NCBI RefSeq assembly: GCF_004010195.1
Contig: NC_057758.1
Location: forward strand, 9,296,623 to 9,360,622
From: Chiloscyllium plagiosum
Lineage: Eukaryota
Length of the DNA stretch: 64,000 nucleotides
Reading direction: 5' to 3'
In this document: positions 55,700-58,600 of the stretch, piece after piece
How the letters are laid out: each line of letters opens with the position of its first letter
Numbering within the stretch: the stretch's first letter is position 1
Translations under genes and position numbers: made by a program
Notes under the pieces: model-generated
Told to the model about the DNA's origin: nothing
Database searches by the model: none
Seen by the model: the letters and a program-made list of their open reading frames with translations, nothing else

Positions 55700-58600
55700 T
55701 GATGATGCTTATGCGTCAATGCCTGCCTCTATGTTATATGTGGAAGGTACGCCAGTTACCATTTTGGAAGGTATGGGGGAACATAGTCAGTCCTTAAATC
55801 AAGCCAGTTCAGAGAGTCTACGCACATAAGGTTGAGTGGAAGGCTCCTGAACTCAATGGGTGCATCAGGAGTCGTGATATGAGAGAGATTTACCGCATCC
55901 CTATTGTGCGAAAGCAGGAATGAGTAAACATTCCAATTCTCATTTCTGTTTTCAGAATTCTGTCCTTTAAATCTGATAGTTCAAGATCTCATAGTGAGAC
56001 TGGGTGGGATTTGTTCAGTACCCTGATGGGCTTGCAGGTAGTACAAAAGGAAGATATACCAGTGCAGGCTGTAAAATACGACTCATGACCCCTGATGTAT
56101 GTCTATGAATGGCGATTAAGCCAAAGAGTGTTAAGTGCATTAAGTAATTTGCTCGTCCTGAAAGCAAGTAGCCATGTTAATCCTATTAACACCGATTTTC
56201 TTGCTGGGAATATGCTGCACTGCACAGCACACGTACACCAGGATGGCCCTGATGAATCATATGAGAAGGATTGGTTAAGGAGATTGGTTAAACCAGATCA
56301 GTTGTTATTGTGCGAATTTTATTGGAATAATAACAGATGTGCACTCAGTGAGAACGTATCTAAAGTCTCTGTGACGGCAAGTAGACCCTACCTTTTTGAT
56401 ATGGAAGGCTCATTTCCTCACGTGTCATTGGCGAAGGCGTCCAGTGACCGGTGGCAGGATTAGGGACCATGGGTACTGAAGGCACAAGAAATGAAAGATT
56501 ATGTCTTAAGGGACTATGTGGGTATCTGGCTCATTGCACATCTGCGGACATATAGGAAGAAACTAAATTGGCTAACTCAGGTGGATAGGGAGGTCCAGGT
56601 AACCCCAACTAGCACTGAAGAGCCTAGGAGAGTAGCGTGGCGTATTCCTAAAGTAGAAGTCTCGGACCCAAGATTTAAAATGGTCCCGACTGAGTTGTGG
56701 GCAAAAGGCAAACCTGATGTGGGGCTCATGCGATGATGTGAACCCATAAGAATAACTGCAAAATCTGAGTATAGTCCTTGCAGAGCACAATACCCGTTAA
56801 AACCCGAGCTGTAGAAGGAATTACTCCAGTCTTTGAATCCCTCCTAAAGGCTGGAGTGATAATACCCTGTGAAAACTCACCGGTGAGAACCCACATTTTT
56901 CCAGTCAAAAAGGCAAACATTCCTGGTGAACTGGAGCAATGGATGTTTGTTTAAGACCTGCAGTTAGTCAATGACGCTGTTGATCCGCGCGCCCCAACCT
57001 TTGCACTATATTTTCTTTTAGATTTATTCACTTACAATGTGGAAACAGGCTCTTCGGCCCAACAAGTCCCCACCGACCCACCACCCACCCATACTCCTAC
57101 ATTTACCTCTTAACCTCAGACTACGGACAATTTTAGCACGGCCAATTCACCTGACCTGCACATCTTTGGATGGTGGGAGTAAACCAGAGCACCCGGAGGA
57201 AACCCACGCAGACACGGGGAGAATGTGCAAAGTCGACACAGTCAGTCACCCGAGACAAGATTTGAACCCGGGTCTCTGGCGCTCTGAGGCAGCAGTGCTA
57301 ACCACTGTGCCTCTGTGCCACCGTGCCGCCCATATATTGGCTCAAATTCACCAGACCGTAAATGGTTCCCTGTTGTGTATTTAGCAAATGATTTCTTTAG
57401 TGTACCAGTACACCCAGAATATCAATCCTAGTTCGCTTTTTCAGTGAAAGGGAAATCTTATACTTTCACCTGACTTTGTCAAGGTTACAATGAGTCCCCC
57501 ACCATATATGATGAGGCTCTACGCAGGAGCCTGTAGAATGTTGTTTTAACACTGGGGTCAGCGCTTCTGCAGTATGTAGACGATTGCTTAATAGCAGCAC
57601 CAACAGAGGAACACTGTGAGAGAGATCCCCTGGAGTTGCTTTGCCATCTAGCTGGGGAAGTACAAAAGCTAGTTTCACAAAACTAAATTTGGGCAGCAAA
57701 AGGTAACGTTCTTAGGGAACTTGATATGTGAACAAGGCAAGGACAATGCTCCAGACAGAGTTCAAGCAATCCAGAAAATTCCAAAGCCTCAATCGAAGAA
57801 ACAATTGATATCCTGTTTTGAGCATGTACTCCTACTGGAGAAAGCTTATATCACATTATGCAACCCTTGAGGCGCCCCTAAGTGACATAATCCATGACAA
57901 AGGGTTGCAGGTCCAGAGTCTATTGCAGTGGACACCAGAGGCCGTGGGTGTCTTTGTTGAATTGAAAAATGCTCTCCAAACTACACCTATACTGAGGATT
58001 CAGAATCCAAACAAACCTTTTGTACAAACGGTAGATGAGAAGTATGGCCGCATGACATCTGTGCTGTTGCAGGATCATGGGGGAGAATTGAGGCTGGTAG
58101 CTTATGTTTCGGTAAAAGTCGACACCGTAGTGGCAGGATTGCCTAAACAATAGACGATAGACAAGAAACAATAGACAATAGACAATAAATGCCTGCGAGC
58201 CATGGCCGCAGCTGAAAAATTTGTTGTGGCCTCCAGGGACATAATCAACTATGGTGAATTAACCCTTCTGGTCCCACGTGCGGTATCCTTACTGCTTTCC
58301 GAGCAAAAGGCCGCACACATGTCAGCAGCACGTTCGCTCAGATACAATACCGTGTTTTTGGGGATGCCTAACATTACAATAAAGCAATGTAATGTCCTTA
58401 ACCCTGCTAGGCATCTCCCCACAGAAGGAGACGGAGACCAACATGATTGTTTTGATGTAACTAATGAAATTTGCAGCCCCTAGACAAGATTTACAGGATT
58501 CACCACTTCAGAATCCTGATATGGAGTGTTTTTTGTGGATGGGCAGCATTCAGGAGCAAGGAGACAGGCCAGAACTGTGTTGAATATGTTGTAGTAACTA

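Follow-up and report, generated by a model that had tools for sequence, protein, structure and literature searches.

A dead class I endogenous retrovirus (ERV) in the genome of the shark Chiloscyllium plagiosum carries in its Pol, between protease (PR) and reverse transcriptase (RT), a predicted CNPase-type domain that very probably was once functional. The domain spans 170 codons (56089..56598, + strand) of the window, the 64,000-nucleotide stretch of DNA analysed here, to which all coordinates refer. With a probability of roughly 0.55, I read this segment as a CNPase-fold domain that was likely captured from a host CNP gene and that, as its modelled structure suggests, probably acted as a 2',3'-cyclic phosphodiesterase. 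The kind is already in print as the CNPase inserts of teleost ERVs, and the shark copy extends its host range without introducing a new principle; what the present analysis adds is a case against 2-5A, a match in walleye virus Env and lineages devoid of the catalytic motifs.

The element is of class I (gamma/epsilon-like), as seen from its LTR, primer-binding site (PBS), gag-pro-pol order and RT and from the env of sister copies. Its RT is closest to that of MLV among solved structures, and the sister env has a gamma-type TM (Pfam TLV_coat, E 4.5e-6). The copy in the window is broken and truncated, and all of its parts lie on the + strand. The 5' LTR (54262..54638, TG...CA, with AATAAA at 54578) has its start set at 54262 by a match to the LTR start of one sister copy, and its 3' part matches both sister-copy LTRs at 78-89%. 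There follow a 7-nt spacer and a decayed PBS (54639..54662), placed by PBS contexts and which I take to be of the tRNA-Pro type, and a gag remnant with stops (55173..55570), recognized by blastn against sister copies and by translation, which has lost about 1.2 kb near 55380 relative to the sister copies and has a weak tblastn match to the N-terminus of a teleost Gag-Pol (E 4e-5). The protease remnant (55740..56010), frameshifted and with stops, was delimited by tblastn, which aligned residues 322-401 of the teleost Pol P0121 to 55775-56005, and by Pfam RVP (E 1.4e-4 on the corresponding sister-copy stretch). Downstream of the CNPase-like domain lies the N-terminal part of RT (56660..56997, located by tblastn, with a frameshift near 56800), whose sister-copy counterpart has MLV RT as best match (E 2e-19). 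RT is then interrupted by a dispersed repeat of 335 nt (56998..57332, no strand assigned) that is missing at this place in sister copies and hence was inserted later; it belongs to repeat family D18, has 69-78% matches elsewhere in genomic DNA and may be SINE-like. The remainder of RT (57333..58520), with a YVDD motif, the connection region and several breaks (Pfam RVT_1, E 2.5e-9; RT_RNaseH_2, E 1.5e-8), is followed by RNase H (58522..59044; Pfam RNase_H, E 3e-10). Homology to the sister copies (blastn) stops at 59044; integrase, env and 3' LTR are absent from the window copy, and blastn found no match to the 3' LTR within the next 10 kb. The first-pass annotation had called this copy defective, and it is dead. 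In one natural sister copy, by contrast with this broken one, PR, the domain and the start of RT form a single frame of 561 codons.

The domain had come to attention through two short motifs, LHCTA (from 56215, His codon 56218) and PHVSL (from 56416, His codon 56419), 67 codons apart; a stop-free pair of hydrophobic-HxS/T-hydrophobic motifs separated by 55-110 codons occurs only once when the whole window is read in all six frames. PHVSL is followed by WQD, a TAG codon (56461-56463) and GPW, the open stretch counts 122 codons from the ATG at 56095 and 124 codons from stop to stop, and the RT start LWAKGKPDVG at 56695 shares the frame of the domain, all of which agrees with what the first-pass annotation had reported. 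Two of its statements need amendment. The domain does lie where it had been placed, and ends at about 56598, beyond the 56520 then noted. It had also been assigned to the pol frame, which is correct for the domain and the RT start and incorrect for the protease remnant (55775-56005), which is in another frame, and for RT once it shifts near 56800.

That a 2H fold sits between PR and RT had been proposed from the motifs, with a comparison of the predicted structure to 2H folds as the way to check it. The AlphaFold model, Foldseek and VIA searches and a profile-profile match all bear the proposal out, and it is nearly certain, going by the model, that the domain has a 2H fold of the CNPase type. 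With 65 database relatives and seven shark copies as alignment input, AlphaFold returned a model with a pLDDT of 90.5 and a pTM of 0.87 (with 20 shark copies alone, the pLDDT was 32 and the model was not used), in which strands E44-50 and E111-117 begin at the two histidines. In VIA, mouse CNPase was the best of 48,161 chains (Z 13.9, rmsd 3.3, 159 of 170 residues aligned), ahead of bacterial CPDase (Z 8.7), Acb1 (7.5), MHV ns2 (7.1), AKAP7 (6.6), rotavirus VP3 (5.5-5.7) and penguinpox PDE (5.1); the first 21 rows are 2H-type proteins going by their titles, some of them being proteins that I presume to be of the 2H family. Every listed row above rank 27 in the Foldseek search of the PDB was CNPase or goldfish RICH.

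Profiles gave the same assignment. The two top matches of the 72-sequence profile in the PDB were G-RICH (E 0.0015) and human CNPase (E 0.046), and profile-profile alignment (hhalign) to 116 CNP domains was collinear end to end, with a probability of 86-92% and an E of 6e-7; trimmed domain profiles were used for this purpose, an untrimmed alignment having reached a probability of 0.2% against one host CNP exon. All 116 CNP domains scored 7.9-22.8 bits, whereas 696 controls, shuffled or reversed, reached 3.7 bits at most. The helix at 127-134, after the second motif, occupies the position of CNPase helix 7, and a glycine stands 15 residues past the histidine in both proteins; residues 121-126, beside the X at the stop, are coil in the model, the first turn of helix 7 included. 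Among 2H proteins, helix 7 is found in CNPase only (excerpts of PMC5283653). The domain thus shares with CNPase and fish RICH (PF05881; PDB 2xmi, 1woj, 2i3e) the fold, both motifs, the post-motif helix and a collinear alignment, while differing in that its identity to them is about 14%, that it is 40-50 residues shorter and that it scores below the Pfam cut-off. Unlike CNPase, it is flanked by PR and RT, without an N-terminal PNK-like domain or a C-terminal membrane anchor.

Single sequences and less sensitive searches gave little. PF05881 exceeded its cut-off in none of 20 shark copies, matched none of the 60 scanned of 111 database relatives and found only the host CNP gene, an exon of which is 100% identical to a Chiloscyllium plagiosum protein, in a search of the whole shark genome; neither the window protein alone (nothing relevant) nor a profile of the 20 shark copies had a match in Pfam or the PDB. 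Word-seeded protein searches yielded no match among longer proteins and one near query length, and an IMG/VR scan found no relative. The top match in the ESM Atlas was the tRNA-ligase CPD family (0.91), at a level of recognition below what is reliable, and serves as a lead only. The lack of a Pfam or PDB match for the single protein, together with the pLDDT of 32 in the first, shallow AlphaFold run, is what would be expected of chance motifs in a decayed spacer or of a neutral passenger. Against this stand the fold, the match between profiles, the purifying selection and the conservation seen across 111 relatives; the idea is so improbable that the VIA score of 13.9 and the dN/dS data below refute it for practical purposes.

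Selection was measured on shark copies. The domain query has at least 152 matches in the 3.56-Gb genome (150 of 913 candidates scored), and the 20 copies that score best of 152 on this region gave 190 pairs, not independent of each other, with a dN/dS of 0.56 (0.42-0.74) for the domain, as against 0.76 and 0.94 in the shifted frames; since the copies were picked by their score on the domain region, dN may be biased down. Variants common to at least three copies had a dN/dS of 0.34, private ones 0.84 (p 0.0035), and the corresponding values were 0.33 and 1.07 for RT and 0.37 and 0.94 for PR. While the virus was spreading, purifying selection acted on the domain as it did on PR and RT, and decay set in after insertion. 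It is highly probable that the domain was functional in the active virus.

The profile of the 20 best shark copies retrieved 111 database relatives. Many of the 60 that were scanned have a retroviral protease before the domain, RT after it, or both. Among 20 relatives looked up by name, 10 clusters carry the names of teleost species and one is labelled bacterial, which is likely fish DNA in a gut metagenome. Distant relatives are about 22-36% identical, and the teleost proteins among them show the PR-domain-RT order and the motifs. The two histidine motifs, whose conservation among related proviruses the first-pass annotation had made a test of its proposal, are indeed kept: both are present in 16 of the 20 shark copies, intact in 43 of the 64 distant relatives that cover both, and retained in proteins of pufferfish, lumpfish, icefish, wrasse and others. 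Their columns are the most conserved of the alignment, His111 being the top one. Where a PR or RT catalytic motif is kept (42 relatives, isoforms counted), both 2H motifs are kept in 32 and broken in 10, mostly by the same Ser-to-Pro change. Over all rows, redundant members included, the Ser of the second motif is Pro in 19 of 113 and the first His is Gln in 10 of 112. A quick tree, whose backbone is unresolved, has these losses at several separate positions. With that backbone open and with CNP on long branches, neither the donor lineage nor the direction of host jumps is readable from it; scored against the viral profile, which is teleost-heavy, the CNPs of sharks do no better than those of teleosts.

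The relatives with an HxP second motif (P0007-P0009, P0017-P0019, P0028, P0029, P0038, P0040, P0061 and P0133), some of them from mandarin fish and mudskipper, often have Gln for the first His as well, beside intact PR/RT motifs. Repeated formation of pseudo-enzymes among them is likely. The same His or Thr changes inactivate CNPase (PMC4643303), and a full-text literature search found no description of catalytic-residue loss with the domain kept. As a separate observation, the 587-residue protein P0094 combines a partial domain that retains an unbroken first motif with Ig V and C domains of host type, and is probably a gene-prediction fusion.

This recurrent loss of catalytic residues with retention of the domain speaks for a non-catalytic role, in which the domain would serve to bind a protein, nucleotides or RNA, catalysis being optional; it might, for instance, compete with host CNP or act as its decoy. 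Host CNP, an interferon-stimulated factor, keeps HIV-1 particles from assembling at the membrane. It binds Gag, and its inhibition of assembly does not depend on its enzyme activity (excerpts of PMC5758531). A fold match outside Pol points the same way. The best named viral matches of the domain in a BFVD fold search, in which Q2VF30_1 was the top match, were the polyproteins of the walleye viruses WEHV1 and WDSV (TM-scores of 0.69 and 0.67 over the query; entries Q9WHI8 and A4GTG3). Both are labelled Env, whereas the window domain is in Pol; walleye virus Env has a predicted cytoplasmic loop at 875-1044, about 170 residues long (PMC3185748, seen in part), and the fold match may, judging by this length, lie within that loop. 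A location of the domain in walleye Env is undescribed in the full-text literature searched, a body that leaves Mazumder et al. 2002 outside. A purely binding function is nevertheless unlikely: relatives in which a PR or RT catalytic motif is present keep both 2H motifs three times in four (32/42), the motif columns are the most conserved, most shark copies (16/20) keep both motifs, the N-terminal domain and membrane anchor of CNP are missing from the viral domain, and the literature search found nothing on fish CNP as a restriction factor.

The preferred reading, a CNPase-type cyclic phosphodiesterase, may be put as follows. An ancestor of fish class I retroviruses would have captured the domain long ago, likely from a host CNP gene, and purifying selection would have kept it between protease and RT. 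Its placement in Pol suggests synthesis as part of Gag-Pol and hence packaging into the particle, where it may have been released by protease or left attached to RT. With the mechanism of CNPase, one histidine would activate water and the other would protonate the leaving group, so that a 2'-phosphate results. As substrates, the likeliest would be 2',3'-cyclic ends on cut RNA, whether viral RNA or tRNA, or free 2',3'-cNMPs, the leftovers of host ribonucleases; on the strength of the model, I lean slightly towards this substrate class. I know of no established benefit of CNPase activity to a retrovirus. In CNPase, helix 7 lets in nothing but water and closes off the side that serves for 2-5A (PMC5283653, in part), and the presence of a helix at this place in the model therefore favours 2',3'-cyclic substrates. 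Mammalian CNPase heals cyclic RNA ends in yeast (excerpts of PMC5434554), and which substrate CNPase itself has in nature is described as unsettled in the examined part of PMC5283653. The natural role of CNPase being open, a viral version of small size, of which variants lacking the motifs occur naturally, offers a convenient test case.

The same helix bears on a different reading, which follows the comparison with coronavirus ns2 and rotavirus VP3 in the first-pass annotation and in which the domain, as a 2',5'-phosphodiesterase, would block RNase L by destroying 2-5A. The superfamily is the same, 15 OAS1_C matches exceed the cut-off in the shark genome, and cartilaginous fish possess the OAS-RNase L pathway (PMC10400998, in part); two loci of the shark genome match the 2-5A RNase family and could be IRE1. 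The known viral RNase L antagonists, however, are AKAP7-like (excerpts of PMC10835031), whereas the domain is CNPase-like (Z 13.9, as against 7.1 for ns2, 6.6 for AKAP7 and 5.5-5.7 for VP3), and a CNPase-type fold weakens the RNase L idea because its helix 7 obstructs the 2-5A-binding side (excerpts of PMC5283653). Ray-finned fish, moreover, have lost OAS-RNase L (parts of PMC10400998 and bioRxiv 693333), and their elements keep the motifs intact, which makes RNase L antagonism unlikely and, for teleost hosts, indicates another substrate or pathway. The comparison with ns2 and VP3 is thus not supported, and destruction of 2-5A is a very improbable function, for which the presence of OAS in sharks leaves some room in the shark lineage.

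A shifted substrate is suggested by the binding residues. Tyr168, Phe235, Arg307 and Val321 (mouse numbering) are substrate-binding residues of CNPase (PMC4643303). In a sequence alignment, 44 of 65 relatives have Val or Ile at the place of the base/sugar-binding Phe235, and the other three also appear to differ in the domain; conserved in their stead are a Trp (59/65) and a Lys (54/65). An F235L change causes a drop of about 30-fold in CNPase efficiency (PMC4643303, Table 1) and, with the binding residues of CNPase not kept, the substrate of the viral domain may have changed as well. Such an apparently remodelled base pocket, with its new conserved Lys and Trp, could belong to a cyclic-dinucleotide nuclease, the fold having been re-tuned to degrade the cGAMP produced by cGAS on sensing retroviral DNA. 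2H enzymes of phage, avian poxviruses and iridoviruses do cleave cGAMP, specificity varies widely on the single 2H fold (both from excerpts of bioRxiv 10.1101/2025.08.21.671373), and an enzyme carried in the virion would arrive together with the DNA. Yet Acb1 (Z 7.5) and the penguinpox PDE (5.1) lie well behind CNPase (13.9), CNPase helix 7 restricts access to the site (excerpts of PMC5283653), and the string 'retrovir' is found nowhere in the preprint on cGAMP cleavage; on balance, a cGAMP nuclease seems distinctly doubtful.

With MHV ns2, MERS NS4b, rotavirus VP3 and the Acb1/poxvirus cGAMP PDEs, the domain has in common a 2H core and the condition of a host-derived enzyme in a virus. It differs from the AKAP7-like PDEs and from the Acb1/poxvirus PDEs in that these are separate captures from other 2H branches (Z 5.1-7.5 versus 13.9). 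Here a virus would independently have taken up a 2H enzyme of the CNPase branch, not of the AKAP7 branch to which the coronavirus and rotavirus antagonists belong. A wider scheme is offered tentatively, at odds clearly below even: fish retroviruses may have acquired the CNP catalytic domain and used it at two positions facing the particle interior, Pol and the walleye Env loop, as a counter-defence. It would have been either a decoy for CNP or a nuclease that attacks some immune nucleotide, 2-5A excepted, and several lineages would later have kept binding only.

The element resembles the CNPase-bearing ERVs of teleosts in having a CNPase-type insert in a fish class I ERV, the PR-domain-RT order and the motifs, and is unlike them in its shark host and high copy number. 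For the teleost elements, Basta and colleagues reportedly placed the CNPase insert between PR and RT in 2009. Similar inserts in fish, which the first-pass annotation had mentioned, can be traced in excerpts of two reviews: some epsilon-like ERVs of ray-finned fish encode CNPase (PMC4977317, citing Basta et al. 2009, J Virol 83:10152), and fish retroviruses including walleye dermal sarcoma virus have 2H domains (PMC9503650, citing Mazumder et al. 2002). A full-text literature search, with most subscription papers and all supplements outside its scope, found no functional test and no report from sharks. A CNPase insert is unmentioned in the examined part of the elephant shark ERV paper (PMC4422223), the words CNPase and phosphodiesterase are absent from a zebrafish ERV survey, and 'retrovir' is absent from the paper on viral PDE capture (PMC10835031). 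Extra enzymes are rare in retroviral Pol; mentions of this one in print go back two decades, with no functional test found.

As to age, the LTR pairs of three sister proviruses differ by a K2P of 0.071, 0.040 and, with part of the LTR compared, 0.026. At the substitution rate of 2.2e-10 assumed in the elephant shark ERV paper (PMC4422223, in part), this corresponds to 59-161 million years, and to 6-16 million years at a tenfold faster rate. As to expression, 2-6% of two single-cell runs from one sample gave 0 matching reads, too small a share to count as evidence.

Several features of the ERV family were noted in passing. The 7-nt spacer between the LTR-terminal CA and the PBS was present at 8 of the 8 loci where the pattern was found, that is, in the window copy (54639-54645) and at L024, L028, L031, L034, L037, L038 and L041. 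The gap between LTR and PBS is usually about 2 nt, and with 7 nt the integrase or the primer removal step may be unusual. The start of env in two of nine sister copies (L024:8202-8621 and L032:7910-8305) encodes a stretch that resembles a signal peptide and a domain of Ig V-set-like type (23.8 bits in Pfam, below the cut-off of 26, E 5.5e-5) that precedes the gamma-type TM; it is a second host-like module of the family, without a counterpart in the window copy. Sister copy L028 (G000:C36) has its 3' LTR about 90 nt past the last long integrase frame and so is env-less, while the gap between integrase and 3' LTR measures 1 to 2.2 kb in other sister copies; the family includes env-less copies.

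Elsewhere in the window, a degenerate satellite whose unit measures about 32 nt, unrelated to the CNPase-like domain, occupies 32656-33054, 35546-36282 and 39033-40849, and two blocks of N interrupt retrotransposon-like open frames at about 48560-49020 and 61930-62480.
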